Positions 2,952 through 58,980 of a stretch of 64,000 nt of DNA are shown piece after piece. The notes below the pieces were generated by a model. The model was not told the DNA's origin and did not search any database. It was given only the letters and a program-made list of their open reading frames with translations. The stretch is from IMG/VR virus record IMGVR_UViG_3300024259_001450, positions 124,076 to 188,075 of that record, one strand, 5' to 3'. The first letter of the stretch is position 1. The number at the start of each line of letters is the position of its first letter. The stretch is from a virus. Taxonomy: Duplodnaviria > Heunggongvirae > Uroviricota > Caudoviricetes. A program made the translations under genes and the position numbers.

Positions 2952-2954
2952 TTT

Positions 2955-4091: not shown

Positions 4092-4354
4092 TGGGAGAGA
4101 AAGATTATCAATTCGATAAAATAAACAGAGAAATCTTGATTTGTATACAAGATTTATTAAGCGTAAGTAATTCCATCGAAGAATTTATCGCAGAAGGCAC
4201 ACAACCGCAATTGGATGCTATTGCCGAACACGCTGAGTCTGTTGACACTGATTGGGAAAACACTAAAAAGCATTTAGTTAAATTAATTGATATTATTACT
4301 GGGAAAGAAGAAACAGTATGGCCTGAAACTATGGGAGAGGACTTCATGATTTGA
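4088..4354 (+). CDS. Hypothetical protein
   Basis: 88-aa ORF, translationally coupled to its neighbours. Confidence 0.3.
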   Translation: MMGEKDYQFDKINREILICIQDLLSVSNSIEEFIAEGTQPQLDAIAEHAESVDTDWENTKKHLVKLIDIITGKEETVWPETMGEDFMI

Positions 4355-4572
4355 TGTCTAAGCAACGAAAGAAATTAAAGGTAGTTTTGGACCCCAAAAC
4401 AGGCATAGTTGAAATAGAACAAATCGGGTGGGACGGGGGCGACTGTTCAGGGGCTATTGATGATCTCATTAAAGCCTATGGAAAAGAAATAAAAGTTAAA
4501 AAGAAATCAGGTTGGCATAAAAAGTCAGTTAAAAAGAAAATAAAGAAAACAATTGATAGGGAAACAAGATGA
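4351..4572 (+). CDS. Hypothetical protein
   Basis: 73-aa ORF, overlaps flanking genes by 4 nt. Confidence 0.3.
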   Translation: MMSKQRKKLKVVLDPKTGIVEIEQIGWDGGDCSGAIDDLIKAYGKEIKVKKKSGWHKKSVKKKIKKTIDRETR

Positions 4573-5714: not shown

Positions 5715-5883
5715 AGGCACTCAGTATAACTGTGATGGTCATATCTGGAAAGTTGTAGAAGAAGTAGTAGACAGTTCTTGTGAATGGCGTAGAGTAATTT
5801 CAACCGATTGCGGCGATGAAGAATTACTTGAAATTGAAACATTAAAGAAAGATTTAGAATCAGGTAGTATCGAATTTATATAA
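5650..5883 (+). CDS. Hypothetical protein
   Basis: ORF with an RBS-like GAGGG upstream of ATG at 5650. Overlaps the dnaJ 3' end. Confidence 0.3.
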   Translation: MFKKRIVTGQVKETRPKSEFPKGTQYNCDGHIWKVVEEVVDSSCEWRRVISTDCGDEELLEIETLKKDLESGSIEFI

Positions 5884-6080
5884 TGGATGGTAAAATCAAA
5901 TTAATCATTGATTCAGATGGCATTTCATTTCGTAGACACGCTCCACATCTTAACAAACACATTAAAGAGATTATTTTAGGAGCGACCAGCGATACTGTCG
6001 CCCTACAGGAGTTAGACACATTCTTGAACGGTTCTGAGAAAATCACACCGATTGTTGGTGAAGATTATTGGTGTGGTTAA
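5883..6080 (+). CDS. Hypothetical protein
   Basis: 65-aa ORF coupled via TAATG. Confidence 0.25.
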   Translation: MDGKIKLIIDSDGISFRRHAPHLNKHIKEIILGATSDTVALQELDTFLNGSEKITPIVGEDYWCG

Positions 6081-7000
6081 TTTTCAAAAGATTCTTTATC
6101 TATAAATCTTACACATTTTTTGATAATTTTCTTGATTAACGCTGTGTCAGTAATGACTACTTTTGTCCCTTTTTTATCTGGTTTGAATTTGGTACGGAAG
6201 TCAGTTCCTTTATAACCAGATAAAACAGTAAACCCAGGATCACCAGCTATTTCTATCCATTCTCCGTCCCAAGAAAGCGGCACAAATGATTTACCCACAG
6301 TATATCCATCAATTATATCTTTTGGGATGATCGTCAATGTGACATTTACCTTTTTTACCGTATCCAATGATGGAGTTTTTTCTTTTATGGTGTTATCAAG
6401 TTTAGTTGCCTTGTTGTACAGACCGGGCATCATGTATTTCAGATGGAATAAGAATAACGGAACTATGTCTCTCTGATATCCTCTAATTTCTTCGAATGTA
6501 AGTTGGGTACGTGGGACGAATTTTGTTAGTGTCACAATGGCTTCTGGTGTAAAATGTTCTTTTTTCAAAAACGGAGTACCGCTTACCATAAAACCTGAGT
6601 GGCTAAGAAATGGTACTTCTTTACATACAGTTGCATAGGAATATGGGAAAAAGATGTAATCTCCGATTTCTGAAACATGTTTTTTGCCATATGCATTTGG
6701 CATTTTCGGACCGGCATTTACTTCGTCTCGTGCATCTGATAAAAAATTATAATATGATTTTGCTCTTCGACTTGGCCCTCTTAAATCTGAAGAACTAATA
6801 TATGGGCATTTCGCTCCAAATACTAGGATCAAAGGACGGATGCATTCGCCCCTGGCCAAATATGGACATTTTTTCGTTGAGTCTAATGAACAAAATGATT
6901 TCTTGAGAGTCGGATGCCATTTATTATCTTTGTTAGCCTCTGCTAGATAGACTCCTATTAACTTCTTTTCTGCCATCAATTTCTCCTTATGAATTAACAC
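6077..7000 (-). CDS. Hypothetical protein (307 aa)
   Basis: Long uninterrupted ORF with no recognisable motif. Confidence 0.4.
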   Translation of the reverse strand: MLIHKEKLMAEKKLIGVYLAEANKDNKWHPTLKKSFCSLDSTKKCPYLARGECIRPLILVFGAKCPYISSSDLRGPSRRAKSYYNFLSDARDEVNAGPKMPNAYGKKHVSEIGDYIFFPYSYATVCKEVPFLSHSGFMVSGTPFLKKEHFTPEAIVTLTKFVPRTQLTFEEIRGYQRDIVPLFLFHLKYMMPGLYNKATKLDNTIKEKTPSLDTVKKVNVTLTIIPKDIIDGYTVGKSFVPLSWDGEWIEIAGDPGFTVLSGYKGTDFRTKFKPDKKGTKVVITDTALIKKIIKKCVRFIDKESFEN

Positions 7001-8193: not shown

Positions 8194-9843
8194 TTAGAGG
8201 TTTCCTTGAACAAAGTCGCTAATGATTCGTGGGCAGTTGGCATCGAACCCGGCAATGTCGACCATTCCGCCATCATTCGGGTCTGCAACCGTGAACTCAG
8301 TAGCAGTCATTCCGATCACGATCAACTTAGAACCAATACCCATAGCCTGACGATAGTTCCGCAACGCCTTAGCAGGCTTAACATCACCACGCCAAGTTTC
8401 GTTATCAGTGATAACAACGAAAGCGTCTACAGGAACCTTATTCTTCTGTGCCCAAATCATAGGCAACGCACAGTCGGTTCCACCGAAACTCAAGTTTCTA
8501 GTCTTGTTAAGAGCGCTGTTCAAACTGTCTCTTGCAGTAATCTTCAAATCTACTAGTTCATGACAGAAACCACGAATCTCATAGTTCTTTTCAGAACGAG
8601 CAATCGTCATAGCCATTGCTGCCGCACCTTCGCTTGGTAGCAAGTTAGGAATTCCACAGATGTCACTCCAAGTCATAGAACCACTTACATCAATACCAAG
8701 CATGTAGTTAGCACCAGTAGATTCAACATAGTTGAAACTCTTGTAGAAAGCATCTTCCAAAGCGTCCTTAACTTGAGAGATAGGATTCCAAGACAAATTA
8801 CCACGGAAACCATGTCCCTTTTCGTAGGTACGCAAAGCCGCAAGCAGTGCGATAGGATGCACACGAGCAGTCTTTAGATTTTCCTCGTCTGTAAGTCTGT
8901 CAACCACTAAACGAGTCTTGTCACCCATAGAAACCAGAGTACCAGCAGCGGTCAAAGGACCAAGACTACGAATCGTAGCAGTCATAGGCATATGATTTAC
9001 TAGTTCATCCAATACTGCCTTTTCCTTCATGAACTGCGTAGGAATACTTTCACGAGAAAGCTTATATTCCTTGATGATGCTAATAGCGATCTTAGCATTT
9101 TCTGCACCCTTAATCAATTCGTGACCATAGATGTAACGCAAGTCCTCATAATCGTTTAGGTTGTCGAAACTCTTATCAAACCCTTCAACTCCCTTTGCGG
9201 CATAACAGAAAGCCAAGTCGTGCGCCTTCGTTGCAGGAGTTACATGAGCCTTACGCAGAATATCACGGTGACTCCAAGGCAATTCGCCTTCTACGGAACG
9301 AGACTGGTACTTGCAAATCTGATAAGCAACAGAACTCGCGCTCTTGTCGTTATACCAATTTGCGAAAGCCTTACGCAGACCACGGCCCCAACCAGTACCT
9401 ACCTTCATTTCCTTAACGAAGGAAGCGAAAGTGAACAAATGAGTACCGATACGACATACAGCATTCAGATGTGCCAAAGCATACTTACGAACAGCTTCAT
9501 TTTCATGAACTGCTGCAAGAGCCAATACAAAAATAGCAGTGTCGTTCTTGGCGATACGACCTTCGTGACTCATCTTAACAACTTCGTCAATAACTGCCAC
9601 ATGATCCTTACCTAAGAAGCTGATAAGGAAATCGGCGTTATTACGAGAAAGCTTACGCTCCGTAACGTAGTAACTTCCGTTTGTAGTTCCAAGTGTCAGG
9701 AACCTACGAAGACGATTGATATCACTTACTTGGTAGACGAATCCACCAGCGTTATTCTTTACCTGATTCGGTTCGTCCTGAACCATTTGATGTGCGTTCC
9801 CTCTAACTGACTTTCCAGAAATTTGAGCGATGTTCTTAGCCAT
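8194..9843 (-). CDS. rsr: Ro60/Rsr-family protein (TROVE plus vWA domain)
   Basis: N-terminal TROVE signature strongly resembles Ro60 (GGFVYQVSDINRLRRFLTLGTTNGSYY versus human [27 protein letters not shown]). C-terminal vWA/MIDAS motif (GIDVSGSMTW). Confidence 0.85.
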   Translation of the reverse strand: MAKNIAQISGKSVRGNAHQMVQDEPNQVKNNAGGFVYQVSDINRLRRFLTLGTTNGSYYVTERKLSRNNADFLISFLGKDHVAVIDEVVKMSHEGRIAKNDTAIFVLALAAVHENEAVRKYALAHLNAVCRIGTHLFTFASFVKEMKVGTGWGRGLRKAFANWYNDKSASSVAYQICKYQSRSVEGELPWSHRDILRKAHVTPATKAHDLAFCYAAKGVEGFDKSFDNLNDYEDLRYIYGHELIKGAENAKIAISIIKEYKLSRESIPTQFMKEKAVLDELVNHMPMTATIRSLGPLTAAGTLVSMGDKTRLVVDRLTDEENLKTARVHPIALLAALRTYEKGHGFRGNLSWNPISQVKDALEDAFYKSFNYVESTGANYMLGIDVSGSMTWSDICGIPNLLPSEGAAAMAMTIARSEKNYEIRGFCHELVDLKITARDSLNSALNKTRNLSFGGTDCALPMIWAQKNKVPVDAFVVITDNETWRGDVKPAKALRNYRQAMGIGSKLIVIGMTATEFTVADPNDGGMVDIAGFDANCPRIISDFVQGNL

Positions 9844-13779: not shown

Positions 13780-13935
13780 ATTATGGCTAAATTCAATTTG
13801 AAACAGTTAAAAAAAGATATAAAGAAACAGGCTTTAAAGAGAAGAATTGATCAAAGGAAGCCAACTAAAAAGACAGCAAATGCATTCCCTTCTCTGCGTA
13901 AGAAACGAGGCGGATGTGGTTGCGGAGGTTAAAAA

Positions 13936-16900
13936 TGGGAGACGCACAAGCAAAATCTGTTCACGAAAAGATAAATGAAATTCTATGTGATACTTCATTT
14001 AAATATGATCAGTCTGCCTGCTTGTGCGATTTACTTAATTCATTTCGTTATTTATCATATGAATTGATTCAAAATCCTCAGATGCTATTAGAGGATTTGA
14101 TTCAGAACAAAATAGAATCGAACAAGGGATATTACCCATTGGATGTGGTAGAATTGCGGTTGGCGTTGTCACAAGACAGAATTCCGTCTATTAAGCCAAT
14201 GCTATTTTCTTATAAGTTTACACAAAAGTATTTACAAGATTACCCCTTGCTTCTATGTATAGATATTTCTAAAGATGATTATAGCTGCTTTGGCGGATTG
14301 GCTATAGGAGAATATTATTCTTCATTGCATAACTCTTTAAAAAGAATCTATATTTCATCTAAATTGAGCAAGAAAACAATCGAAGATGTACAAAACATTT
14401 TAAAGGAAGAAGATATTAAGTGCGATATGATAGTTGATACTAAAGTTCCAGGTTTGTCTAATCCCAAATTGGCTGCTGCTTTAAATGCGTATATAGTCAA
14501 TATATCTCAGCTAGGCATTGAAGACGAAACTATACACGCCGACACTGAAGAGGAAGCAGTTGCCGATGCTATTAACCGTAAATGGGATCGTGTACAACAA
14601 GCTAAAAATCTTAGATACAGAGAACATAAGTATAGACCGCAAACATGGCTCAAACTTCGTAATACGGAATTTTGGAGCAATATGGTTAGACATGCTCATA
14701 CTGTCAAATCAATTAAAATGGCTCAATTGAATGATAATATCCAACTGTCAGAAATAGAACAAAAGATATTTAATTTCATAAAGATGGTTATAGCAGATTT
14801 GAAACAAAAAGGAATGGATGCAGAATGTAGAGTTGCTGGCGGATGGGTCCGTGATAAGCTAATGGGATATGAGAGTGACGATATTGATATCGCTACCAAT
14901 ATATCTGGTATACAGTTGGCAAACTATATGTCGAAATATGCTCGTGATCATAATATAGACGGCGTGGGGAATGCCCATGAAGTCAGTCTTGAAAAACTAG
15001 TAGATAAAGATGGTGATGAAGGCGAAGAGACATTAAAAGTCGGCGGCATAAATATCTTTGGGCAAAAGATTGAATTTGTGCCAATGAGAAAAGAAATATA
15101 TGATTCAGAAAGCAGAAAGCCAACTATAGTTTTAACTAACAATGTAGAAGACGATGTACTCCGTCGTGATTTGACAATCAACTCATTGTATTACAATATA
15201 TTGACTGGCAAAGTAGAAGATTATGTGGGCGGAAAAGAAGATTTGGAAAAGATGGTGTTGAGGACACCAGCGGGTGCATTAGAAGGATACGATGGGACAT
15301 TGAAAACGTATATTGAAGACCCTCTTAGGATGTTGAGAGTATTGCGTTTCTATACTCGTTATCCTAACGCAAAAATAGATAGTAACATTATCAAGGTTAT
15401 GGAGCAATCTAAAGACCCTAATTCTGAATTCTCGAAAGCGTATAAGGCGAAAGTTGCACCAAGTAGGTCTTCTAAAGAACTCAGAAAAATGATGCAATCT
15501 AAAGACCCAATTCCAGCAAGTAGACTGTTATTGGATTCTAACTTCTATAAATTAGTATTCAATGTAAGTCCTGAATGGTATAACATGGACATGGATCAAC
15601 AAAGTCCTTTTCATAATCTTACATTGAAAGGGCATACTCTTCGCGTAATGGAAGAGTTAAAAAACATAGCAAACGAAATCGGATTAGAAGACAACAGTGA
15701 TGAAAGAGGATTGGTTCTTTTGGCTGGTCTGTTGCACGATTTTGGAAAAATGTCACCTGATATTCGTGCCCCTAAGATTGATAAGAAAACTGGTAAGCCA
15801 GTTACATTCCAAAGGGGAGAAGAAACTGTAGAACGTATGCGTTATATACGTCACGAAGTGGAATCAGCTACATTCTTGTCTCAGACACTCAAAGACATGA
15901 ATTTCAATGAAGAGGAACGAGATTTTGTTGAATTGATTGTTAGAGGTCATATGACACCTACTAATTTGAAGAAATTTGTAGAAATGTATGAAGAGAAATC
16001 AAAATCAGGTAATTCTAGAAAAGCAAAAGATACGATGAATCGTCATTTGGGACAATTTTTACAGAGTGTAGACCAAAGGCTTGATACATTGATGATGGCT
16101 ATAGAAAATGTTAAAAAAGATACCAGAATCAGTGATGAAGATAAAGCCAATAGAATAAAAGACTTAGAAAAATGGATTACACCATATGGTCGTTTGTGGC
16201 AATGGATTATGTATCATCATCGTGCTGATTCAATGGGCAAAAGTGATATGACTGAGCGTGAAATAGAGGAAACTAAGGCGATTAATCAGAAACTTATAAA
16301 TGTAGTAAAAAACTATAGAGATACGCTGGGAACGCTTACCAGAACGCCTGTTGGAGATAAGTTTGGTAATGTAATTCGAGAAATGATGCAAGAACTTGTA
16401 CCAGACTTGCCAAGGGACGCTATGTTGAGCGATTCAAGGATTAAGCGTCCAACGCACTATATCAAGTTTATTATGATGAAAGTGATTGAACAGCAGCAGT
16501 TGGGCTATATAAAGACGCTAGACGATGCTAAAGAATTTATTCGTAAAAGTGGTCGTAACTGGGGTAATATATGGAAACAGCAAATACGGAGACAGCAAAT
16601 GTCAGAATATCATGAAACGAATCTTGCTAATAATTGGTACAAAATGCAAAAGAAAGCGGATGCTTCATCTGCGTCTGAACCATCAGGGTTTGATGGCTAC
16701 GAAGGGCAAAGCCCATTAGAAAGAGTCGATATGCCATATACAATGGAAGATAGAAGTTCTCCTCTTCCTTTCCAGGTTGGAGACAAGGTGAGAGTAAGGC
16801 AAGTCGGAATGATTTATGAGCAAATAGAAGGTCGTGTTGTAGACGCTCAGGAGAATTTGATTGTTATAGATTGGCAGACTGGTAGGTACGCAGGAAAAAC

Positions 16901-16952
16901 TGAGAAGATGACTATGGATAAGGCAACTATAAAGTTGGATGTTATCAAATGA
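13936..16952 (+). CDS. cca: CCA-adding tRNA nucleotidyltransferase (class II head plus HD domain) with long N- and C-terminal extensions
   Basis: Pol-beta-like head motif AGGWVRDKLMGYESDDIDIAT with RRDLTINSLYYN. HD motif LLAGLLHDFGK. GGAGG RBS 8 nt upstream of ATG at 13936. Confidence 0.8.
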
Positions 16953-41688: not shown

Positions 41689-43713
41689 ATGCCGAAATCA
41701 CTGTTTCGCTATCCTGGCGGAAAATCAAAAAAAAGCATATTGGATAAACTCTGGGCTAAAGCGCCCAAAGAGTTTTCTGAGTATAGAGAACCATTTGTAG
41801 GCGGTGGAGGGCTGTTTTTCGATATCCCTAGCACCAAATGTAAAAAACGGTGGATTAACGATATAGACAGCAATCTAATAGCTGTCTATGATGCTTTCAG
41901 GAACCGCCCAGAAGCCTTTATATCGCTCTGTAAGGCCATCGAACCACAAAAGGCGGGCGAAACCCTAACTTCCTCTAAACCAGGCGGAAAAGAGATTTAT
42001 AACGCTCGTTTAAAAGAGGTTTTCGATAAATTCGTTGCAGATAAAGACATGGATAGGGCATTGCGTTATTTCTTCCTTAATAGGACTAATTGGGGTGGTA
42101 GAGTTGATTATGACAGACCTTCACGATTATACTATTCAAATCCTCAAGGATGGAATATCGTTAAAGGCGATACACTAGAAAAAGCAGCAAAACATATAAA
42201 AGGAGCAAGAATAACCAATCATTGTGCTTCTATCTTGCTTAAAGAACCAGGTAAGGATGTTTTTATATATTGTTTTCCAAAAGATTCTAAAGTTAAAATG
42301 GCCAACAGAACTCTTAAGAAAATACAAAATATTGAAATTGGAGATAAAGTCTTAGGAGGCAGGACAGTCAAAAAAGTCTTTTGTAATCATTATAATGGCA
42401 AAATCGTAAATATTAAAATTCAAGGCTCACCGTTTATGATAAATATTACTGATGATCACCCGATGATGGCTATAAAAAAAATAAATTCTAAACAAGAAAA
42501 AAGAAACGTTGAGAAATTAGAGAAATCGATAAAACTTATTGATGCCGGAAAATTACAAATTGGGGATTATCTATGTGTCCCTGTTGGCTGCGACAACGGC
42601 AATCAATGGAACTGGGGTTTTGAGCCGTACAAAGGTGACCCATATTACGGCGATAAAAGAAAAACCAAGATAAATAAAATATCTTTTATTCAAGATGATA
42701 TTAAAATTGCCAATATATTAGGGCTTTATTCCGCTGAAGGAACTGCCTCAAAATATATAGTGCATTTTTATTTTAGTGTAAAAGAAAAAGAAATAATCAA
42801 AAAGCTTTGTCAAGATATAGAAGATGTATTTAATTATAAGCCTGTTGTTTATGAAAAATCACCTAGCGATAGTGTAACAACTGTTGCCATCCACTCTGTT
42901 GTAATAAGCTCTTTTATCCGCAAATGGGTTAAAGGAAAAAGTCGCAGATGTGATATCCCTAATAAAAGATTCAGCAATAAAATATTGGAAGCTCCTCAGA
43001 AAATATTATTTCAGATTCTAAAATCGTGGCTTTTGGGAGATGGGGGATTTTGGAATCCCGGTAACGGTAAGGGTAAAGTAACTGGCACTAGTGCTTCTTA
43101 TGAATTAGCTTTACAAATGTATGACATAGCTCTCCAATGTAAATTGCGACCTGGCTTCAAAAAACGTCAAAACTGTTATGATGTTTATTTTTCTATTGCC
43201 GATGAAATTAAAAAATTAGGTTATGACATCGAAAGCGGCAAAAGTAGACCACAGCGTAAAATAACAAACGATTATATTTTGTCAAGAATTACAAGAATTT
43301 CAAATATTGATTTTTTAGGCAATGTTTACAATTTACATGTTGATAAAGATAATTTGATATGTGTGGATGGTGTTATGTCGCATAATTGTGATCCGCCTTA
43401 TGTCGTAAATTCTGATTTAGCTAAGAGTTCACAATTGTATGCAAATAATTTCACAGAAGAAGATCATATTAAGTTGGCAGGAATTATTAAACAATGTAAA
43501 CACAATGTGTTAATTAGTTACGACGATCATAAGTTAATAAGAGAATTATATTTGCCAAAAGATGGATTCCATATTTTCGATGAGGAATGGACATATTGTG
43601 GAACGTCGAGTTCAGAAGATGCTGGCGAAGACAATAAACAGAAAAAAGTCGGCAAGGAATTATTAATTACCAATTACGAAGTCGAAAAAGAAACAGATTT
43701 ATTTGAAGAATAA
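41689..43713 (+). CDS. dam: Dam-family N6-adenine DNA methyltransferase interrupted by an intein
   Basis: Motif I FRYPGGKSK. Extein junction …DVFIY|C…HN|CDPPYVV (E. coli Dam has VYCDPPY). Confidence 0.8.
   Translation: MPKSLFRYPGGKSKKSILDKLWAKAPKEFSEYREPFVGGGGLFFDIPSTKCKKRWINDIDSNLIAVYDAFRNRPEAFISLCKAIEPQKAGETLTSSKPGGKEIYNARLKEVFDKFVADKDMDRALRYFFLNRTNWGGRVDYDRPSRLYYSNPQGWNIVKGDTLEKAAKHIKGARITNHCASILLKEPGKDVFIYCFPKDSKVKMANRTLKKIQNIEIGDKVLGGRTVKKVFCNHYNGKIVNIKIQGSPFMINITDDHPMMAIKKINSKQEKRNVEKLEKSIKLIDAGKLQIGDYLCVPVGCDNGNQWNWGFEPYKGDPYYGDKRKTKINKISFIQDDIKIANILGLYSAEGTASKYIVHFYFSVKEKEIIKKLCQDIEDVFNYKPVVYEKSPSDSVTTVAIHSVVISSFIRKWVKGKSRRCDIPNKRFSNKILEAPQKILFQILKSWLLGDGGFWNPGNGKGKVTGTSASYELALQMYDIALQCKLRPGFKKRQNCYDVYFSIADEIKKLGYDIESGKSRPQRKITNDYILSRITRISNIDFLGNVYNLHVDKDNLICVDGVMSHNCDPPYVVNSDLAKSSQLYANNFTEEDHIKLAGIIKQCKHNVLISYDDHKLIRELYLPKDGFHIFDEEWTYCGTSSSEDAGEDNKQKKVGKELLITNYEVEKETDLFEE
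42271..43386 (+). mobile_element. Intein (372 aa) with LAGLIDADG-type homing-endonuclease domain inside dam
   Basis: Starts Cys (CFPKDSKV…), ends …VMSHN followed by extein Cys. Internal ILGLYSAEG and LLGDGG LAGLIDADG-like motifs. In-frame. Confidence 0.7.
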
Positions 43714-44234: not shown

Positions 44235-44996
44235 ATGGATAAGACAAGTTTAGGTGACAGAATAAAAGGATACGAGGGAGTTTCTCGTAATTTCCTTGTA
44301 GGAAGAATGCCAGTAATCTGTCGCGTCGATGGACGAGCATTTCACACATTCACCAAACACTGTGAAAAGCCTTTCGATAAGAACATTATATCGGCAATGG
44401 TTCACGGTGCAAAACAGGTGGCAGATGATATGCAGGGATTCAAGGTTGGATATGTCCAATCAGATGAAGCATCGTTTGTAATCACAGATTATGATGAAAT
44501 AAACACACAAGGATGGTTTAACTACAATCTTAGTAAAATGATATCTATGTCTGCATCTGTAATGACTTTGCATTTTAATAGTTATTATAGATATCTAGAC
44601 GAGAATATTGTGGTCAATGGATCAGCAGTAACAAGGTTAAGACCTATTCCTAATGGTTATTTTGATTCTAGAGCATTTAATGTGCCAAGAGAAGATGTTT
44701 CAAATTACCTATTGTGGCGTTGCCAAGATTGGAAACGTAATAGTTTACAAATGTATGCTCGTTCTGTCTATTCTCACAAAGCATTAATGAACAAGAATCA
44801 GGACGACATGCACGAACTGTTGCACCAAAAGGGTAAAAATTGGGCTACAGATTTGAGTAATGTAGAGAAGAATGGAACATTTTTGGTGAAAACAGATGAT
44901 GGAATAGGAACAAGATCAGACATTAGACCATCGTTTGAGGAAATCAGTGCTGTTGTGGAACCATTGGTTTATCCGTTAGAGAAATTGGAGAAATAA
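44235..44996 (+). CDS. Thg1-like protein (tRNA-His guanylyltransferase family 3'-5' nucleotidyltransferase)
   Basis: VICRVDGRAFHTFTK…KPFDKNII…VGYVQSDEASFVI parallels the Thg1 catalytic motifs (VVRLDGRNFH…; YGQSDEYSFVF). Confidence 0.7.
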   Translation: MDKTSLGDRIKGYEGVSRNFLVGRMPVICRVDGRAFHTFTKHCEKPFDKNIISAMVHGAKQVADDMQGFKVGYVQSDEASFVITDYDEINTQGWFNYNLSKMISMSASVMTLHFNSYYRYLDENIVVNGSAVTRLRPIPNGYFDSRAFNVPREDVSNYLLWRCQDWKRNSLQMYARSVYSHKALMNKNQDDMHELLHQKGKNWATDLSNVEKNGTFLVKTDDGIGTRSDIRPSFEEISAVVEPLVYPLEKLEK

Positions 44997-45430
44997 TGAA
45001 CAACAGAATAACATCATTTACTGACGAAGAAAAAATAAAATTCATTGAATTGTTTAATAAAATAGCTACAGAATATACGACAGACAAGTGGGTGGCATCA
45101 CCATGTACAGATTGGGATGCCTATGAAACATTTATAGCCACAGAAGATGGTAACGATTTTGGATTTGAACATTATCTTTCGATAACCATTTATAGAAAAC
45201 AGCGTTTCTGGTCTAAGCAATTTCGTTACGAAATTAGTTGTTATGCCAGCGGGCACAGTAGTATATCAGCCAAGAAAACAGTGTCTGTCCATTTGGGGAT
45301 AGAAAAAAATTCAGAATTAGAGAATACAATAAAAAGTATTTTCAATAGGATAGAATCAGATTTCGTTAATAAAGAAAAAAACACTGTGAGTATCTTGGAC
45401 AAATTAATGAAAGAAGGAAATCACTTGTAA
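44996..45430 (+). CDS. Hypothetical protein
   Basis: 144-aa ORF coupled via ATGA. Confidence 0.4.
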   Translation: MNNRITSFTDEEKIKFIELFNKIATEYTTDKWVASPCTDWDAYETFIATEDGNDFGFEHYLSITIYRKQRFWSKQFRYEISCYASGHSSISAKKTVSVHLGIEKNSELENTIKSIFNRIESDFVNKEKNTVSILDKLMKEGNHL

Positions 45431-45439
45431 GGAAATAAT

Positions 45440-46396
45440 ATGCATACGGAAGAATTGAAGTTAGATTTTGATGACGTTTTAATACGTCCCAAACGTAGTA
45501 AGGTTCCCTCCCGATCACATATCGAATTAGAAAGAACATATACTTTCAAAAATAGCGGAAAAGAATGGACTGGTTTACCAATTATTGCCGCGAATATGGA
45601 CACCACCGGAACATTTGCCATGGCTCAAGCATTAGCAGAATACAAAATGCTCACGGCATTACATAAGCATTATTCAATCGAAGAACTGACAGATTTTTTT
45701 GCCGACAATCAAAACATATGGGATAATGTCTTTTACACTGTTGGCATTGGCGATGATGACTTTGAAAAATTGAAAGAAGTAGCGGTTGCACTATATGTAA
45801 AAATAAATGATTTTGACACAAGCAATCAACCTCCAATGTGGAGAACTAGATGCTATAAAGAAATGAAGAAAACATTTCCAAGAATGCTTTGTATTGATGT
45901 TGCAAACGGATATACGGAATATTTTTTGGAACGAGTTGAAAAGATAAGAAAAGAATTTCCGAATAGCACTATAATGGCTGGCAATGTAGTGACTTATGAA
46001 ATGGCAGAACAATTGATCCTTTCCGGTGTAGATATCGTAAAATGCGGGATTGGATCAGGAAGTGTGTGTACGACTCGTATAAAGACGGGTTGTTTTGTTG
46101 CTGGGACTAAAGTTAATACTAAAAAAGGATTAATAAATATTGAAGATATCAAAGTGGGTAATTATGTATTAACTCACGACGGAACTTATCAAAAAGTTAA
46201 GAAAAATAATAGACTAAAAGAAAAAGAAGATTTATTAGAGATAAACGGTGTGATATGCACAAAAGATCATGAGTTTTATGTAATCGATAAAAACAAAGCT
46301 GATTTAGTTAATGAAAACAATTTACACAATTTTGCATATTGGGTAGAAGCTGTTAATTTAACTGATCATCATTTTCTCATAGAAATAGAGGAATAA
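45440..46396 (+). CDS. guaC: GMP reductase N-extein fused to split-intein N-fragment (IntN, 101 aa)
   Basis: N-terminus [13 protein letters not shown]…[13 protein letters not shown]…[13 protein letters not shown] matches GuaC up to the catalytic loop. It then continues [23 protein letters not shown]…LIEIEE and stops. Confidence 0.8.
46091..46393 (+). mobile_element. Split intein N-fragment
   Basis: Begins with Cys directly after the extein KTG. Hint blocks A/B present (LTHDGTY). Terminated by an in-frame TAA. Confidence 0.7.
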
Positions 46397-46404
46397 ATTA
46401 TTTT

Positions 46405-46447
46405 ATAGTGTATAAAATAGTATAGATTTACCTATTTTATACACTAT
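46405..46447 (+). promoter_or_regulatory. Perfect 16-bp inverted repeat (hairpin) between IntN stop and the HNH gene RBS
   Basis: ATAGTGTATAAAATAG-tatagatttac-CTATTTTATACACTAT, immediately followed by GGAGAAATATTATG. Confidence 0.5.
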
Positions 46448-46458
46448 GGAGAAATATT

Positions 46459-47172
46459 ATGTCTAAAGCCAAATTTAATCTAGAAAAAAAAGATATTAAA
46501 AAGAAGATTAATTCAGGTCAAAAGGTCAAAAATATAGCCAAAGAATACGGTTGTTCTGTGGGTCTAATTTATACTTTTTGTAAAAACAACAACATAAAAA
46601 TACCCAAGTTGGATTTAGTGGGACACCAATTTAATAAACTAAAAGTAATTAAAAAAATTGGGTCTAAAAACGGGTCTATTTACTGGCTTTGTGAATGTGA
46701 ATGTGGCAAATTAAGAGAATTTCCAACAAAATCCATTAATCGAAAAGAAAATATTTCTTGTGGATGTTATTTATATTCAAAAGAAAGAAGTCGAAAAAAT
46801 AAGTTTTGGAATGGTTATGAGGACATACACGGAAAATGGTGGGGCAATATAAGAAAAGGGGCAGCGAAAAGGAGCCATCAATTTAATATAAGTATAAAGT
46901 ACGCATGGAAATTATTTTTAAAACAAGAAAAAAAATGTTCTTTAAGTGGAGTTGATATAAAATTCTCTCGATCTTCTCGTGGATTTCAAAGAGGAGAAAC
47001 CACAGCGAGTTTAGATAGAATAGATAATTCAAAAGGTTATATTAAAGGAAATGTCCAGTGGTTACACAAAAATGTTAATCTTATGAAACAAAAAATGTCA
47101 CAAGATGAATTGATCGGTTGGTGCAAACTGATAGTAGATTACAGGAAAAATAATCATGAAATTCAAACTTAA
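46459..47172 (+). CDS. Free-standing HNH homing endonuclease inserted between the intein halves
   Basis: Own RBS. Cys-rich N-terminus. C-terminal [27 protein letters not shown] (HNH_3/AP2-type). Different reading frame from guaC. Confidence 0.7.
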
Positions 47173-47959
47173 AAAAGTATTTAAAAAAAATGTAAAATCT
47201 AATCTAGAAGACGTTTATGATTTAACAGTTGAAAACAATCATTCTTATTGTGTCGAGAGCATGGTTGTTCATAATTGTGGATATCCTCAATTGTCAGCGG
47301 TGTTAGAGACAAAAAGTGCAGCACACGGATTGGATGGTCATGTCTGCTCTGATGGGGGCTGTAACGTCACAGGTGATGTCTGTAAGGCATTTGGCGCTGG
47401 TGCTGACTTCGTTATGTTGGGTGGATTCTTCGCTGGCACAAGCGAATGTGAGGGCGAATGGGAATATCACGAATTGCAAGACGAAGAACAAAAACGACAC
47501 GAATATTATTCATCTTTGAATAATTATGTACGAGAAAGCATGAGAACAAGAATTGTTGACAAGGAGAATATTCCTATTACGATTTCTTCGTATGAACAGC
47601 AAAACAGTGGTGAAGGTAAAATGTTTCATTCTTGGGAAGATGCCCTTAGATATGTAGAAACAGAACTTGAAAAAACTGCTAAAAATGTTGGTAAAAAAAC
47701 TTTGAAATTTTACGGTATGTCATCTAAGGATGCACAAGAAAAATACCATGATGGAGTAAAAAAATATAGAACTTCTGAGGGAAAAACTGTTTCAATTCCC
47801 TATAAAGGTAAGGCAGAAGATATTGTGCAAGACATTCTTGGTGGTTTAAGATCGGCTTGCACGTATGTTGGAGCGAGTAAGTTAAAGTATTTTAATAAAT
47901 GCTGTGAATTTATTCGCGTCTCAAGAACTCATAATACGGTGTATGGAAATGGTACGTAA
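47156..47959 (+). CDS. guaC: Split-intein C-fragment (IntC, 40 aa) fused to GMP reductase C-extein
   Basis: MKFKLKK…[21 protein letters not shown]|[11 protein letters not shown]…DGGC…GADFVMLGG…[11 protein letters not shown] matches the GuaC C-terminal half. Same frame as the N-part. Confidence 0.8.
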
Positions 47960-48491
47960 AGAAAAGACATTTGGGTCTTGTTTTACTGGGCTGGACATTC
48001 ATAAAGCCTCACTGGAATTAGTGCGCTCTTATAGAGAATTGGAACAAACGAATGACGACCAAAAAGGATATTTCAAATTACTGAATGTTCTGAGCAACCT
48101 AATTTATGCTTTTGAAATTATGAAAGTAAATTTGGATTGGCCTCCTCCGTTTGTCGGCCAACACCATCTATTGGAATGTGAACACTATCAAAAAGAATTG
48201 AATTTAAAAATCAATACTTTTGATAACTATTTGAAATTACGTTTAGAGTCCATATTAAAGGCTCAACCCATATCAATACGAGCAGAGCAAATTAACGAAT
48301 TGATACGGGTGACATTTGAAAGTGTCGAAAAAGATTCTTATATCATTGGATGGGAAAAAGAAGCTGATTGTTTAGCGACAGAGGCATCTAATTTTATGAA
48401 GAAAATTTCTGACGAATGCGAATCTCGCAATCCTATATTAATAAAATGGCTATTAAGCCAAGTGTACTGGGACACAATGGAGGAAGAGTAA
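47943..48491 (+). CDS. Hypothetical protein
   Basis: ORF overlapping the guaC stop. Confidence 0.35.
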
Positions 48492-48868
48492 TGAAAATAT
48501 TTGTACTAGATGACGACCATTGGCGAATTGGGTGGTTTTTAAACACTTTTGGAGCGAGAAATGTGGATTACGCCCACGGACCAATTAGGGCTATCGCAAA
48601 ATTGTGTCTTAATAAGTATGATAAAATCTTTCTAGATCACGACTTAGGTGGAGCATACACCCGTGGACCCAATGGCGATGGAATTGATGTGGTAAAAGTG
48701 ATGCATGAAGAAAAGCTTCATATTGATACTCCTATTGTCATTCATACAATGAACGAGGAAGCCGGGAAGAAAATGGAAAAAGTTTTATCTTATGAACATA
48801 AAAATGTTGAGGTCATTCCATTCTGGATATTGTCGAAAAATTATGAATCAGAGAAGGATTCCGAATAA
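48491..48868 (+). CDS. CheY-like receiver-domain-like small protein (paralogue of 16952..17302)
   Basis: [11 protein letters not shown]…FLDHDLGG…IHTMNEEAGKK. GGAGGAAGAG RBS. Confidence 0.4.
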   Translation: MKIFVLDDDHWRIGWFLNTFGARNVDYAHGPIRAIAKLCLNKYDKIFLDHDLGGAYTRGPNGDGIDVVKVMHEEKLHIDTPIVIHTMNEEAGKKMEKVLSYEHKNVEVIPFWILSKNYESEKDSE

Positions 48869-50677: not shown

Positions 50678-52696
50678 TTGAAAGGGCTAATGATGGAAGA
50701 TATGTTTGATGATGCAGTCGCTGTAGCAGAAGATTCTCAAGCAGATAGAATCAAAGAGCTTGAAAAACTCATTTTCGCAGCAAGGAAACCTTATTATAAT
50801 GGCAATCCTATTATGGAGGACTCCGAATACGATGCCCTTGAAGATGAATTGCGTGAATTAGCACCAGATTCTAAGGTCTTTGACGAAGTTGGAGCAGATG
50901 ACGGTTCTGATGATTCCGTTAAATTCTCCAAGGAAAAGCACCAAGTTCCTATGGGAAGTCAAAGCAAGTGTGCCAATGAAGATGAATTCAGAGATTGGGA
51001 CAGACTTCATAATCTCGAAAATGAATCTGTTTTGGCGACATATAAGCTGGATGGAGCATCGTTGAATGTCGTGTATGAAGATGGTAAACTCGCAAAGGCT
51101 GTGACTCGCGGCAATGGTGTCGTAGGTCGCAATATCACTTCTAATGCCAAGAATTTCATCGGTATCCCTGCAACCATTAGTATGAAAGAACGTTTGGACA
51201 TTCGCGGTGAGTGCATTCTTTCTACTGAAAATTGGAAAGCAATCGATCCTAAAGCCTTGAATCCTCGCAACTTAGGAACAGGCATTATGAGCAGAGAAGA
51301 TGGAAAAGACTCTGACAAACTAAGATTTATTGCATTTGATGTGGTTTGTGAGAAGAAAGAATTCAAAACAGAACATGAAAAGATGAAATTCCTTAGACAT
51401 ATAGGAATTGAAGTTACATGGTATAAGATTTGTAAGAATGTTGATGAGGCTATCGAATTCTATCAAAAAATAGCCAAAGGGCGAACGAATTGTGCAGTAA
51501 GATTGCATGATTACCATGTATGGATTGATGGCATTGTAATGAAATTGAATAGTGTCGCAACCCAAGAGAAATTGGGGATTAGCAGTGGTCGTCCTAAGTG
51601 GTCTACTGCTTTGAAGTTCCCCCCACCTGGGGCGATTACATACATTAAAGACGTTGAATTGGGCGTGGGACATACTGGTGCAATTACGCCTGTGGCGTGG
51701 ATAGAACCAGTACAAATCGGTGGAACCACAGTTAAAAGAGCCACGCTGAATAACTGGGATTTCATCAATATGATGGACGTAGCCATTGGCGATAAGGTAA
51801 AAATCGTCAAGGGTGGTGATATCATTCCTAAATTGGTATCAGTTATAGATAGACCCAAAAACCGCACAGTCATTCCTGCTCCGACAGAGTGCCCTGAATG
51901 CGGCGGTCCTGTCGGAAGAGATACAAATGTCACTGGCGATTTGGGAGCAGTTATTCGCTGTACAAATACTGATTGTGATGCTCAAGCTGTCGGTAAGTTC
52001 AAGAGAATGGTTAAGAGGCTGGAAATTCTCGAAATCGGTGAGAGTATTATCGTTGGAATGTATGAAGCTGGCATTATTAAAACAATTGCTGATATGTTTA
52101 GAATCGAAAACCATCGTACTGAAATTTCTAAGCTAGAAGTAGGAAATGGTGTATGGGGTGAAAGTAGAACTGATAAAATGATTGATGAAGTCAATAAGAA
52201 AAAGAAAATGACTTTGGATGTCTTTTTGGGAATGCTTGGAATCAAGGGTCTTGGACAACGAAGGGCTAAGATTGTAATGGATAACGACGTAGCCCCTCAG
52301 ACGCTTGATGAGTGGCGTTCTGGTCAGTTGGTTAAAGTCGCTGACAAGGTTGGTGTTCCGAATATCGCTGTTAATATCCAAAAGGCGATTGATGCGAATA
52401 GCAACTTGATTGATGACCTAGTAACAGTGATCACAATTACAGAGACTAAACAAAAGCAAGACGGCGTTCTGTCTGGCAAGTCGTTTGTTTTGACTGGCAG
52501 TTTTAGCCGCAAGAAAGCATTGATTCACGCTGATATCGAGAACGCTGGTGGAGAAATCCATAAGAGTGTTAGTAAAAATATTGATTATCTTGTGCAAGCA
52601 GACAAGAACAGCACAAGTACAAAAACTCAAAAAGCAGAGAAGTTAGGAATCGAAGTTATTGATGAAGATGATCTAGCGGAGATAATTAATGGCTAA
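50678..52696 (+). CDS. ligA: NAD-dependent DNA ligase (LigA)
   Basis: Adenylation motif KLDGASLNVVYEDGKL. OB and Zn finger (CPECGGPV…C…C). HhH region. C-terminal BRCT (GKSFVLTGSFS…). Confidence 0.9.
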   Translation: MKGLMMEDMFDDAVAVAEDSQADRIKELEKLIFAARKPYYNGNPIMEDSEYDALEDELRELAPDSKVFDEVGADDGSDDSVKFSKEKHQVPMGSQSKCANEDEFRDWDRLHNLENESVLATYKLDGASLNVVYEDGKLAKAVTRGNGVVGRNITSNAKNFIGIPATISMKERLDIRGECILSTENWKAIDPKALNPRNLGTGIMSREDGKDSDKLRFIAFDVVCEKKEFKTEHEKMKFLRHIGIEVTWYKICKNVDEAIEFYQKIAKGRTNCAVRLHDYHVWIDGIVMKLNSVATQEKLGISSGRPKWSTALKFPPPGAITYIKDVELGVGHTGAITPVAWIEPVQIGGTTVKRATLNNWDFINMMDVAIGDKVKIVKGGDIIPKLVSVIDRPKNRTVIPAPTECPECGGPVGRDTNVTGDLGAVIRCTNTDCDAQAVGKFKRMVKRLEILEIGESIIVGMYEAGIIKTIADMFRIENHRTEISKLEVGNGVWGESRTDKMIDEVNKKKKMTLDVFLGMLGIKGLGQRRAKIVMDNDVAPQTLDEWRSGQLVKVADKVGVPNIAVNIQKAIDANSNLIDDLVTVITITETKQKQDGVLSGKSFVLTGSFSRKKALIHADIENAGGEIHKSVSKNIDYLVQADKNSTSTKTQKAEKLGIEVIDEDDLAEIING

Positions 52697-58907: not shown

Positions 58908-58980
58908 GGGCCAGTAGCTTAATTGGGAAAGCACTACACTTGCAATGTGGAGGATATGGGTTCGATTCCCATCTGTGTCC
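58908..58980 (+). tRNA. tRNA-like gene, anticodon UGC (Ala) by canonical numbering; acceptor stem imperfect
   Basis: D-stem GCTT/AAGC with GG in the loop. Anticodon stem CTACA/TGTGG, loop cTTGCaa. T-arm ATGGG-TTCGATT-CCCAT. Acceptor GGGCCAG/CTGTGTC pairs at 5 of 7 positions (3:70 G·G, 4:69 C·T). TATAAT 17 nt upstream. Confidence 0.45.

Follow-up and report, generated by a model that had tools for sequence, protein, structure and literature searches.

The phage DNA analysed here, a stretch of 64,000 nucleotides (the window), encodes guaC in two adjacent, co-oriented ORFs, and a complete nuclease gene is located between them. This raises the question of what the intervening DNA is and how one enzyme could be made from two pieces. 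Each of the two guaC ORFs carries one half of a split intein, and the window locus is a fractured gene in the sense of Dassa et al. 2009, with a new insertion site and a different kind of nuclease. The general arrangement, in which split-intein halves flank a nuclease gene within a host gene, has been known since 2009. As the best explanation, a mobile class 1 split intein together with a free-standing homing endonuclease gene very probably interrupts the phage guaC gene in its catalytic loop.

Architecture of the guaC locus

The features of the locus are listed in Table 1. The first 17 nt of IntC overlap with the 3′ end of the nuclease gene ORF2, which has its own ribosome binding site (RBS), a GGAG located 7 nt upstream of the ATG. 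In the frame of ORF1, approximately 27 stop codons are located between IntN and IntC. The initial annotation, which had described guaC as two same-frame ORFs separated by in-frame stops and by a differently framed nuclease gene with its own RBS, was verified in all its coordinates and sequence claims.

Table 1. Features of the fractured guaC locus (positions refer to the window).
Feature	Position	Strand	Description
ORF1	45440-46396	+	318 aa; GuaC residues 1-217 and 101-aa IntN, end FLIEIEE*
guaC N-extein	45440-46090	+	Residues 1-217, ends in the catalytic-Cys loop; Pfam IMPDH 7.9e-31, NF003470
IntN	46091-46396	+	101 aa and TAA stop; block A Cys1, block B TxxH (CTKDH)
RNA hairpin (predicted)	46401-46451	+	In the 62-nt ORF1-ORF2 spacer; 3′ arm pairs with GGAG RBS (46448-46451)
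ORF2, free-standing putative endonuclease gene	46459-47172	+	237 aa; frame differs from ORF1
ORF3	47156-47959	+	267 aa; frame of ORF1; 40-aa IntC followed by Cys and the remaining GuaC
IntC	47156-47275	+	40 aa, MKFKLKK...MVVHN, blocks F and G; TIGR01443 23.7 bits
guaC C-extein	47276-47959	+	227 aa and stop; +1 Cys at 47276-47278, then GYPQLSAV; Pfam IMPDH 1.4e-31

Verification of the locus in independent assemblies

ENA, JGI and Logan assemblies yielded 13 contigs with the exact ORF1 protein. Five of the loci were compared with window positions 44235 to 48500 and are 99.98-100% identical to them, including the stop codons and ORF2, and the identical locus is present on contigs of up to 188 kb. 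Because the window derives from a metagenome, an artefact has to be considered, in which the real sequence would be an unbroken intein whose endonuclease domain is in frame, or the assembly would be chimeric. Its probability is negligible: the extein-frame stops between the halves are too many for a single sequencing error to account for the split, the nuclease gene is an entire ORF with a separate frame and RBS, the five loci from separate assemblies are identical or one base apart, and diverged loci show the same architecture. The agreement of the independent assemblies confirms that the stops are not assembly errors.

The complete phage genomic context that had been claimed for the element is itself metagenomic. 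The locus is absent from all 50,697 GenBank phage records, among which a nucleotide search resulted in three short unrelated matches and no close relative. A scan of IMG/VR with ORF1 revealed one locus, with a 32% match confined to the intein.

Group I introns with HNH or GIY-YIG ORFs often interrupt phage genes, and for this reason the intervening DNA could be read as a self-splicing RNA intron with a nuclease ORF instead of a protein-level element. No Rfam group I or group II intron family was matched at the gathering threshold anywhere in the window, and ORF2 is flanked by translated Hint-domain halves that are in frame with the exteins. A group I/II intron was rejected on the missing Rfam match, and an origin of the split at the RNA level is scarcely credible.

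The host gene encodes a GMP reductase

Halves of an IMPDH/GMP reductase were detected in ORF1 and ORF3 with Pfam and NCBIfam models. The exteins were joined in silico to a 444-aa protein, which contains the catalytic GxGxGSxCTTR loop and scores 482.6 bits with the GMP reductase model NF003470 (cutoff 397). With TIGR01305 it reached 454.6 and is thereby below the cutoff of 492.15, which is probably explained by two lineage-specific insertions. According to the equivalog profile and the catalytic loop, the joined protein is assigned to the class 1 GMP reductases (GuaC).

An intein-less allele, P0002 (442 aa), was identified on contig L007 in the same synteny as in the window (Thg1, hypothetical gene, guaC). 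In alignments with this allele as well as with cellular GuaC, the joined exteins show no gap at the junction, and the identity to P0002 amounts to 83% for the N-extein and 89% for the C-extein at the amino acid level. The split point is located in the middle of the catalytic loop, seven residues after the catalytic Cys. At the junction, the window has a Cys codon (TGT) and P0002 a Val codon (GTA); the change is located in a conserved active-site loop. The Val to Cys exchange was rejected as a firm claim of an intein scar, since 12 of 168 uninterrupted loops have a natural Cys here. The Cys may equally be a pre-existing landing pad.

The split intein and its relationship to IMPDH-1

Both intein halves matched Hint-domain profiles above the respective cutoffs, namely Hint_2 at ORF1 residues 218-256 (33.6 bits, cutoff 28.4) and TIGR01443 (intein_Cterm) at ORF3 residues 19-41 (cutoff 15.6 bits). 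Furthermore, the intein-like domain of PDB entry 2lwy was matched with an E-value of 8e-5, while the score for Intein_splicing (PF14890) was below its cutoff (22.1 vs 35.8). A single-sequence AF2 model of the fused IntN and IntC was uninformative (pLDDT 33); the membership in the Hint family rests therefore on the profiles and on the homology to IMPDH-1.

The first intein residue, Cys1, is ORF1 Cys218 directly after CTTRIKTG. It is invariant in eight aligned inteins, in which the TxxH motif, block F, VHN and the +1 nucleophile are conserved as well; in the window intein, these motifs are represented by CTKDH in IntN, VVHN in IntC and a +1 Cys. The N-terminal 17 residues of IntC have a net charge of +7 and the C-terminal 41 residues of IntN one of -7. 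Judged by its motifs, the profiles and the colinear host protein that results from its removal, the element is classified as a class 1 naturally split intein.

The fused IntN and IntC are 51% identical to the published IMPDH-1 intein over 141 aa (E 4e-43). Taken alone, IntN is 53% identical to the IMPDH-1 IntN, and IntC can be aligned with its IMPDH-1 counterpart. Both inteins have the split into 101 and 40 aa, the IntC start MKFKLK and a Gly at position -1. The IMPDH-1 split intein is reported to trans-splice efficiently in vivo and in vitro, its insertion point is GGG/SIC and its +1 residue is Ser (Pinto et al. 2020, PMC7090010). The window site CTTRIKTG/C (IKTG/CGY), in contrast, is located 10 codons downstream of GGG/SIC, with the catalytic Cys between the two sites, and has Cys as the +1 nucleophile. 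The likeness to IMPDH-1 noted in the initial annotation is thus real at the level of sequence, but the window intein is not an IMPDH-1 allele: the alignments indicate a homologous sequence at another integration point. Profiles, alignment and anatomy together uphold the proposal of a guaC gene that is interrupted by an IMPDH-1-related, naturally split intein, the halves of which flank a free-standing endonuclease gene of the HNH superfamily.

Trans-splicing activity would be expected from the homology to IMPDH-1, which splices. This dependence on homology leaves room for a relic, with halves that have lost the ability to splice and a guaC that is dead or whose products function as a non-covalent two-chain enzyme like Aeh1 NrdA; a functional enzyme from unspliced gene pieces has a precedent in Dassa et al. 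2009 (PMC2677866), and a phage could tolerate the loss of guaC, which is accessory to it. A relic is nevertheless quite improbable. All catalytic intein residues are intact and conserved across alleles of only 50-65% identity, both extein halves remain 83-89% identical to the uninterrupted allele and still contain the motifs of GMP reductase, and IMPDH-1 splices efficiently at 51% identity. Moreover, non-covalent complementation of a protein split in the middle of its catalytic loop seems unlikely.

Related loci and insertion sites

The insertion site of the window intein is referred to as site b. In metagenomes, at least 11 N-halves and 14 C-halves with the site-b junction were identified, each representing a distinct 90%-identity cluster. 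Including this site, related inteins occupy four sites in guaC within a stretch of 52 residues: site a (GIGxG/S) with a Vsr-like nuclease, site b (KTG/C) with a PacI-like His-Me finger nuclease, site c (SAVxE/C) with a short Vsr-like nuclease, and site d (GAG/S) with a DUF7487 ORF or none. The IntN sequences of site b group in a clade of their own within the site-a inteins in a neighbour-joining tree with midpoint rooting, which has no bootstrap support.

Three site-b loci from other phage lineages (L008, L010 and L020) have an intact ORF2 orthologue of 227-239 aa between the halves. In a further one, L019, the same nuclease gene is now a pseudogene and the intein halves are intact, as predicted by a homing cycle. 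At site a, the two inspected loci, L012 and L013, both contain the same P0033 allele with an unrelated Vsr-like nuclease. Compared with the site-b loci L008 and L009, they have the same neighbourhood and homologous inteins 10 codons apart in guaC, and their nucleases belong to an unrelated family. Contig L017 has guaC split into three pieces, with two related inteins as connections; on the reading proposed below, this would mean that the paralogous inteins acquired orthogonality in nature.

Two possible traces of mobility were rejected. A co-conversion tract was searched by comparison of the window with the intein-less L007, and the identity at the junction (71-76%, mean 81%) is within the normal scatter and gives no co-conversion signal. 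Among the site-b loci, intein and nuclease (52-74% identical) are about as diverged as the exteins (48-66%); this lack of excess similarity provides no evidence of recent horizontal transfer.

It is conceivable, although we propose it only tentatively, that one split-intein lineage moved repeatedly within guaC to the four sites and captured a different nuclease at each. If so, the exchange of its nuclease would redirect a split intein to a different site. As for the +1 nucleophile, the host would either have been forced to accept it (Val to Cys, Ala to Ser) or have supplied it through rare natural Cys variants, and the site-b intein would be a new, possibly orthogonal, Cys+1 relative of the fast tool intein IMPDH-1.

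The nuclease gene and its PacI-like fold

In the ORF2 protein, a helix-turn-helix (HTH) at the N-terminus (residues ~10-43) is followed by a beta module rich in Cys (residues ~57-106, CxCxC...CGC); the C-terminal part contains a beta-beta-alpha His-Me finger, the core of which spans residues 183-210 (nt 47005-47088). A beta-beta-alpha-metal fold is present, and the best structural neighbour is PacI, at 18% identity. Where strand 1 ends, the canonical His is replaced by the invariant Arg187 (ASLDRID). D186, Y194 and N198 are likewise invariant, and N207 is nearly so. The designation as an HNH endonuclease in the initial annotation was therefore retained for the His-Me-finger fold only, given the invariant Arg and the lack of a Pfam HNH-clan match at E<0.1. 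Neither DUF559 nor NUMOD3 was matched by ORF2.

The family of ORF2 has no Pfam model and comprises 151,510 cluster representatives at E<=1e-3. It is mostly intergenic, and no characterised member was found. According to Jablonska et al. 2017 (PMC5714182), the His-Me fingers of group 20 (PacI) have no catalytic His and a Tyr in the inter-strand loop, and an N-terminal HTH is reported for them; the facts on the PacI active site were taken from two reviews. ORF2 resembles this group in the lack of a catalytic His, the Cys-rich presumed zinc sites and the lack of a Pfam family; its conserved Tyr and the Asp and Asn that may be available for the metal are candidate counterparts of the inter-strand Tyr and the metal ligands of the group. 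It differs in that PacI, a restriction enzyme of bacteria, recognises an 8-bp palindrome, and in that the ORF2 family is far larger than group 20 as described. By analogy to PacI, where Tyr replaces His, ORF2 is presumed to be a nuclease with Tyr194 as the putative counterpart.

Alternatively, ORF2 may not be an active homing endonuclease: it could be nuclease-dead, a repurposed DNA-binding protein or a nuclease with another task, for instance one that attacks competing phage or host DNA, and the element would now be immobile. The invariant Arg, the missing Pfam HNH match, the huge and mainly intergenic family and the lack of any sign of recent transfer can be cited for this, as can the PHROG matches of ORF2, which include the 'Srd anti-sigma factor' and 'decoy of host sigma70' families. 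We consider it unlikely, since D186, Y194, N198 and N207 would fit the Asp/Tyr/Asn logic of PacI, which is active without His, and since an orthologue occupies the exact slot at four site-b loci from other lineages (intact in three). The unrelated Vsr-like nuclease at the two site-a loci shows that the nuclease family tracks the insertion site, which is expected if the nuclease sets the target. Furthermore, the element is polymorphic in presence and absence between close relatives (window and P0002), and the decay of the gene in L019 indicates that the phage can do without the nuclease, as expected for a selfish homing gene.

Hairpin and expression signals upstream of the nuclease gene

A hairpin with a minimum free energy of -23.7 kcal/mol (z -5.5) was predicted in the spacer between ORF1 and ORF2, and none of 200 shuffled sequences folds as well. 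The GGAG RBS of the nuclease gene is located inside the predicted stem. A related GTGTATA...TATACAC stem was predicted for L010, while L008 shows the motif at the sequence level only, with a predicted fold that did not reach significance; for the site-a loci, a different RBS-pairing stem was predicted. Hairpins of this class upstream of nuclease genes have been described before (Dassa et al. 2009, PMC2677866). In line with the folding model, the hairpin may have a regulatory role by restraining the translation of the nuclease.

A late-promoter box of the T4/Aeh1 type, TATAAATA, was also considered for the hairpin and rejected, because the stem contains TATAAAATA instead. The sole nearby copy of TATAAATA is on the minus strand inside ORF2. 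Scans for sigma-70 promoters and terminators resulted in no enrichment over shuffled sequences.

Comparison with other interrupted genes

The closest known loci are the fractured IMPDH-1 and IMPDH-2 genes. Their host family (IMPDH/GMP reductase) and their three-gene layout (N-half with IntN, nuclease gene, IntC with C-half) are the same as in the window, and a hairpin likewise precedes the nuclease gene. The nucleases differ, with a His-Me-finger fold in the window and a Vsr-like (EDxHD) nuclease with NUMOD3 in the published IMPDH loci (Dassa et al. 2009, PMC2677866). The fractured genes of gp41-1, gp41-8, NrdJ-1 and NrdA-2 share the architecture, the presumed homing logic and the phage-like metagenomic origin, but have other host genes and intein sequences unrelated to that of the window. 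Only GIY-YIG and Vsr-like nucleases were seen in the fractured genes of Dassa et al. 2009, who predicted, and did not observe, nucleases of the HNH type (PMC2677866).

Without an intein, a comparable gene order is found in Aeh1, where nrdA is split by the HNH-type gene mobE and the halves of the enzyme associate non-covalently (Edgell and co-workers, cited in PMC2677866). As in the window, a free-standing nuclease gene of the HNH superfamily is located between the halves of a nucleotide-metabolism gene in one operon. The translation of mobE is controlled by a hairpin, and a comparable one is predicted upstream of the window nuclease gene. In contrast to the Aeh1 halves, those of the window each carry an intein fragment.

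For the intein itself, Npu/Ssp DnaE is a further point of comparison, a naturally split class 1 intein of ~100 and ~40 aa whose trans-splicing restores an essential enzyme. The window intein is likewise of class 1 and has similar half lengths, Cys1 and Cys+1. The DnaE halves, however, are encoded at distant loci without a nuclease gene and are fixed in a cellular lineage, and no close sequence relationship to the window intein is detectable.

Proposed mechanism and significance

Splicing, nuclease activity and the nuclease target are steps that we infer, and for a mobile split intein they would be connected as follows. ORF1 (N-extein and IntN) and ORF3 (IntC and C-extein) would be translated separately, and the acidic C-terminal part of IntN would associate with the basic N-terminal part of IntC. 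Protein trans-splicing by Cys1, the TxxH motif, the terminal HN and the +1 Cys would then release the 444-aa GMP reductase, which would differ from an uninterrupted allele at the junction only by the exchange of Val to Cys. The ORF2 product, with its HTH, Cys-rich module and PacI-like His-Me finger, would act as a site-specific DNA endonuclease, the translation of which would be restrained by the RBS-pairing hairpin. In a mixed infection, the nuclease would cut an intein-less guaC near AAAACTGGT/GTAGGATACCCT, and recombinational repair would copy the nuclease gene, both intein halves and the Cys codon.

IMPDH-1 is among the fastest orthogonal split inteins in protein engineering. The window intein with its +1 Cys and -1 Gly, together with at least 10 diverged alleles, may be a source of new, possibly orthogonal ligation tools. 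In addition, the locus provides a defined candidate DNA target for the very large, His-less nuclease family of ORF2.

Fractured genes have been proposed as intermediate forms that connect contiguous inteins with split ones and with free-standing homing endonucleases. The presumed homing site of the window element is defined by the uninterrupted and syntenic P0002 on L007. In combination with the site-b loci L008 and L009 and the site-a loci L012 and L013, this allele makes the question of whether the nuclease dictates the landing site of a split intein directly testable.

Structure of the fractured guaC locus

The initial annotation had described two guaC ORFs in the same frame, with stop codons and a differently framed gene with its own RBS between them, and its coordinates match to the base. 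ORF1 and ORF2 are separated by a spacer of 62 nt, ORF2 and ORF3 overlap by 17 nt, and about 27 stop codons lie between IntN and IntC, the two intein halves, in the frame of the exteins. The exact ORF1 protein is encoded on 13 contigs of up to 188 kb in assemblies from ENA, JGI and Logan, and the five of these loci that were compared with positions 44235–48500 of the window are 99.98–100% identical to them. The alternative of an assembly artefact, in which the stops would be errors, could therefore be dismissed. An RNA intron interrupting the gene was also considered, against which the lack of an Rfam match argues. The locus was found in none of 50,697 GenBank phage records and is known from metagenomes only; jumbo phages, XacN1, Xoo-sp13 and Cr30 among them, have an uninterrupted guaC.

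Features of the window and of related loci
Feature	Location	Strand	Description
Ro60/TROVE + vWA protein	window 8194-9843	-	
Poly(A) polymerase head (PolyA_pol) + HD domains	window 13914-16952	+	1012 aa
D12-class methyltransferase with intein	window 41689-43713	+	674 aa
Thg1-like tRNA-His guanylyltransferase	window 44235-44996	+	
ORF1	window 45440-46396	+	318 aa: GuaC residues 1-217, Cys218 + 100 residues (IntN), TAA stop
GuaC lineage insertions	window 45790-45880 and 47450-47690 (approximate)		inside exteins
Spacer hairpin	window 46401-46451		
ORF2	window 46459-47172	+	237 aa, frame differs from ORF1; GGAG 7 nt 5' of ATG
ORF3	window 47156-47959	+	267 aa, frame of ORF1; MKFKLKK...MVVHN (IntC, 40 aa), then C-GYPQLSAV... 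to GuaC end
Nuclease end/IntC overlap	window 47156-47172; L008 6619-6629; L010 6623-6633; L012 5881-5891		
NAD-dependent DNA ligase	window 50678-52696	+	
tRNA-Cys	window 58908-58980	+	one tRNA
P0112, uninterrupted GuaC	L014 1069-2256		TRxxTG-C-GYPQ
L017, three-piece guaC	3501-6991		ENA ERZ27301260 k141_809975
L018, site-d locus	3501-5060		JGI 3300009529 Ga0114919_10000793; KAVGVG/C...VHN/SDFVMLGG
L019, site-b nuclease pseudogene	2737-3375		Logan SRR17165158_64950

The host gene and its empty allele

ORF1 and ORF3 contain the two halves of an IMPDH/GMP-reductase domain (Pfam), and the exteins joined in silico yield a protein of 444 aa, which is recognized as GMP reductase by NCBIfam NF003470 (482.6 bits, cutoff 397). 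Apart from identical proteins, the database entry most closely related to ORF1 is P0002, an uninterrupted GuaC of 442 aa (83% identity in the N-extein, 89% in the C-extein). Its alignment with the spliced window product is continuous across the junction, where P0002 has Val in place of Cys. The P0002 contig has the gene order Thg1-hypothetical-guaC, as in the window. The window GuaC carries two lineage-specific insertions missing from cellular GuaC, one following residue ~118 (about 28 aa) and one following ...CEGEWEY (about 70 aa); at the position of the second, other phage GuaCs have shorter insertions. Since both are also present in P0002, it represents a true empty allele of the guaC of this phage lineage. 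With 81% nucleotide identity between the genes, the element is thus a presence/absence polymorphism among close relatives.

A split intein related to IMPDH-1

Both halves exceed the cutoffs of intein profiles (IntN: Pfam Hint_2, 33.6 bits vs. 28.4; IntC: TIGR01443 intein_Cterm, 23.7 bits vs. 15.6). The similarity to the published split intein IMPDH-1, which the initial annotation had noted, was borne out by alignment to the reference sequence published by Pinto et al. 2020 (PMC7090010): with its halves fused, the window intein shares 51% identity with IMPDH-1 along the full 141 residues (E 4e-43). The two inteins share the 101 + 40 aa split point, the IntC start MKFKLK and a Gly at -1. The last 41 residues of IntN have a net charge of -7 and the first 17 residues of IntC one of +7, and the same polarity was described for IMPDH-1 by Dassa et al. 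(2009; PMC2677866). An alignment of eight relatives shows no variation in Cys1, the TxxH motif, block F or the terminal VHN, and all of them have a +1 nucleophile. A non-splicing relic was considered as an alternative; because the window intein is homologous to IMPDH-1, for which efficient trans-splicing in vivo and in vitro has been published (including Pinto et al. 2020, PMC7090010), it would be expected to trans-splice as well.

Insertion sites in guaC

The window intein is not an allele of IMPDH-1: the native junction of the latter is GGG/SIC, with a +1 Ser upstream of the catalytic Cys, whereas the former is inserted 10 codons downstream with a +1 Cys. Those of the 120 best ORF1 homologues that bear an intein were assigned to site a (GIGxG/C; 32, including the contiguous mini-inteins P0018 and P0029), site b, that of the window (KTG/C; 11), site c (PQLSAVxE/C; 2) and site d (KAVGVG/C; 1). 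A search with ORF3 recovered 14 C-halves with the site-b junction and eight with VHN/S(A/V)C(T/E)TR. In a midpoint-rooted neighbour-joining tree of IntN, which carries no bootstrap support, the site-b inteins form one clade nested inside the site-a diversity near IMPDH-1.

In 168 loops counted as uninterrupted, the site-b +1 position is occupied by Val (127), Ile (29) or Cys (12). Two of the Cys loops are C-halves of site-a loci; the others belong to uninterrupted phage-like GuaCs (P0112, P0265, P0310, P0316, P0326, P0340, P0346, P0349, P0353 and P0359; TRxxTG-C-GYPQ). In the window, the intein may have imposed the +1 Cys on the gene, or a Cys already present as a rare natural variant may have offered the landing site. 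The Cys-bearing uninterrupted GuaCs either were left behind by the precise loss of an intein or represent natural variation that pre-adapts the site to one. Full-text searches of the literature turned up no intein described for GMP reductase or for the KTG/C site.

The putative ORF2 nuclease

ORF2 has no nuclease match in Pfam or NCBIfam and no sequence relative in the PDB; in PHROG, it matches families labelled endonuclease, HNH or endonuclease VII (1e-14 to 1e-22). An alignment of 62 homologues revealed a conserved Cys cluster (CxCxC...CGC) and the motif ASLDRIDxxKGYxxxNVQWxHKxxNxMK, in which D186, R187, Y194 and N198 are invariant, and H203 and N207 almost invariant. The AlphaFold2 model based on this alignment is confident (pLDDT 94.2) and consists of a three-helix HTH at the N terminus, a small beta module, and a beta-beta-alpha unit at the C terminus. 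According to reviews, PacI is a His-Me finger enzyme lacking the catalytic His, with a Tyr from the inter-strand loop, Asp and Asn as metal ligands and no Pfam family. ORF2 similarly has Arg187 where His is expected and an invariant loop Tyr194, with D186 and N207 available for metal, and we hypothesize a PacI-like active site by analogy. The label HNH from the initial annotation is therefore right for the fold and superfamily and wrong for the motif.

Clustered at 50% identity, the family has 151,510 representatives at E<=1e-3 and 12,155 at 1e-30; it occurs in 174 GenBank phage records, named hypothetical protein, HNH endonuclease or endonuclease among the rows listed. Distant relatives (37–43% identity) are solitary genes between unrelated neighbours. 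The Cys-rich beta module (profile positions ~48–108, GxxFGxLxVI...WxCxCxCG...SCGC), presumably DNA-binding, is found in up to 11 tandem copies in proteins of 550–900 aa (P0360, P0369, P0379 and others) and is thus independent and widely reused.

That ORF2 is inactive or repurposed was considered as an alternative; intact orthologues (227–239 aa, 53–64% identity) are located between the halves at three other site-b loci, L008 (a 160-kb contig), L010 and L020, in the last of which the order Thg1 ... guaC ... NAD-dependent ligase is as in the window. At the site-a loci L012 and L013, which share the neighbourhood Thy1, rIIB, guaC, dCMP deaminase and SSB with L008, the halves enclose a NUMOD3 + DUF559/Vsr-like protein of 328–339 aa with an EVQGDYWHG motif, the nuclease type of the IMPDH-1 and IMPDH-2 loci (Dassa et al., PMC2677866). 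At these loci, nuclease family and insertion site go together. In fractured genes only GIY-YIG and Vsr-like nucleases had been seen, and HNH types were predicted to be possible (Dassa et al., PMC2677866); a 2025 survey of out-of-frame intein-associated nucleases lists Vsr-like, antisense LAGLIDADG and endonuclease VII-like types.

Hairpin and overlapping reading frames

The ORF1-ORF2 spacer folds into a hairpin of -23.7 kcal/mol (z -5.5; not equalled by any of 200 shuffles), the 3' arm of which pairs with the GGAG of ORF2. It matches the hairpins reported upstream of 15 of 16 nucleases (Dassa et al., PMC2677866); the T4-type TATAAATA box is absent from it. A related stem, GTGTATA...TATACAC, is predicted for L010; in L008 the motif is visible in sequence only and its predicted fold is not significant. 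Site-a loci have a different stem with CUCC paired to GGAG. In both unrelated nuclease families the ORF ends within the first IntC codons (...EI*, in the window ...EIQT*, over M/L-KF(K/E)L), which may reflect translational coupling of the C-half, or simply a common insertion point within the intein.

Related loci and possible signs of homing

The IntN nearest to that of the window (64%) is encoded at L019, where the ORF2-type gene is a pseudogene with three in-frame stops, which has lost the N-terminal HTH and in which one Zn-Cys is substituted; both intein halves and both exteins are intact despite this decay. L018 represents the fourth insertion site, where the native Ala is replaced by a +1 Ser; its halves lie 70 nt apart without a nuclease gene, and Thg1 is directly upstream as in the window. 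Neither a co-conversion tract between the window and P0002 nor intein or nuclease similarity in excess of that of the exteins was found, so recent movement is not evident.

At L017, two related split inteins divide guaC, which is thereby spread over three ORFs. A 152-aa Vsr-like nuclease is found at site c (PQLSAVVE/C); the middle ORF (178 aa) consists of IntC (43 aa), a 31-aa extein and IntN (104 aa), and is followed by a 345-aa DUF7487 ORF and then the site-d IntC (VHN/SDFVM) with the C-extein. This arrangement implies that two paralogous inteins would carry out two orthogonal trans-splicing reactions.

Other genes in the window

A second intein was detected three genes upstream, in a D12-class N6-adenine DNA methyltransferase. 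It is contiguous (~372 aa), contains a LAGLIDADG-type motif (LGLYSAEG) and is inserted at ...DVFIY/C...MSHN/CDPPY, directly before the catalytic DPPY motif. The phage-like window (~36% GC) also harbours a cluster of RNA/DNA processing genes (see table). Despite the Ro60 gene, no Y-RNA family reached the Rfam gathering threshold in the window.

Overall interpretation

Taken together, guaC is very probably a fractured gene restored by inferred protein trans-splicing, accompanied by a putative selfish PacI-like His-Me homing endonuclease that would target uninterrupted alleles. Architecture and host enzyme family, as well as a homologous intein, were already known from fractured genes and IMPDH-1; new at this locus are the insertion site, the +1 residue and a nuclease class unreported in such a role.
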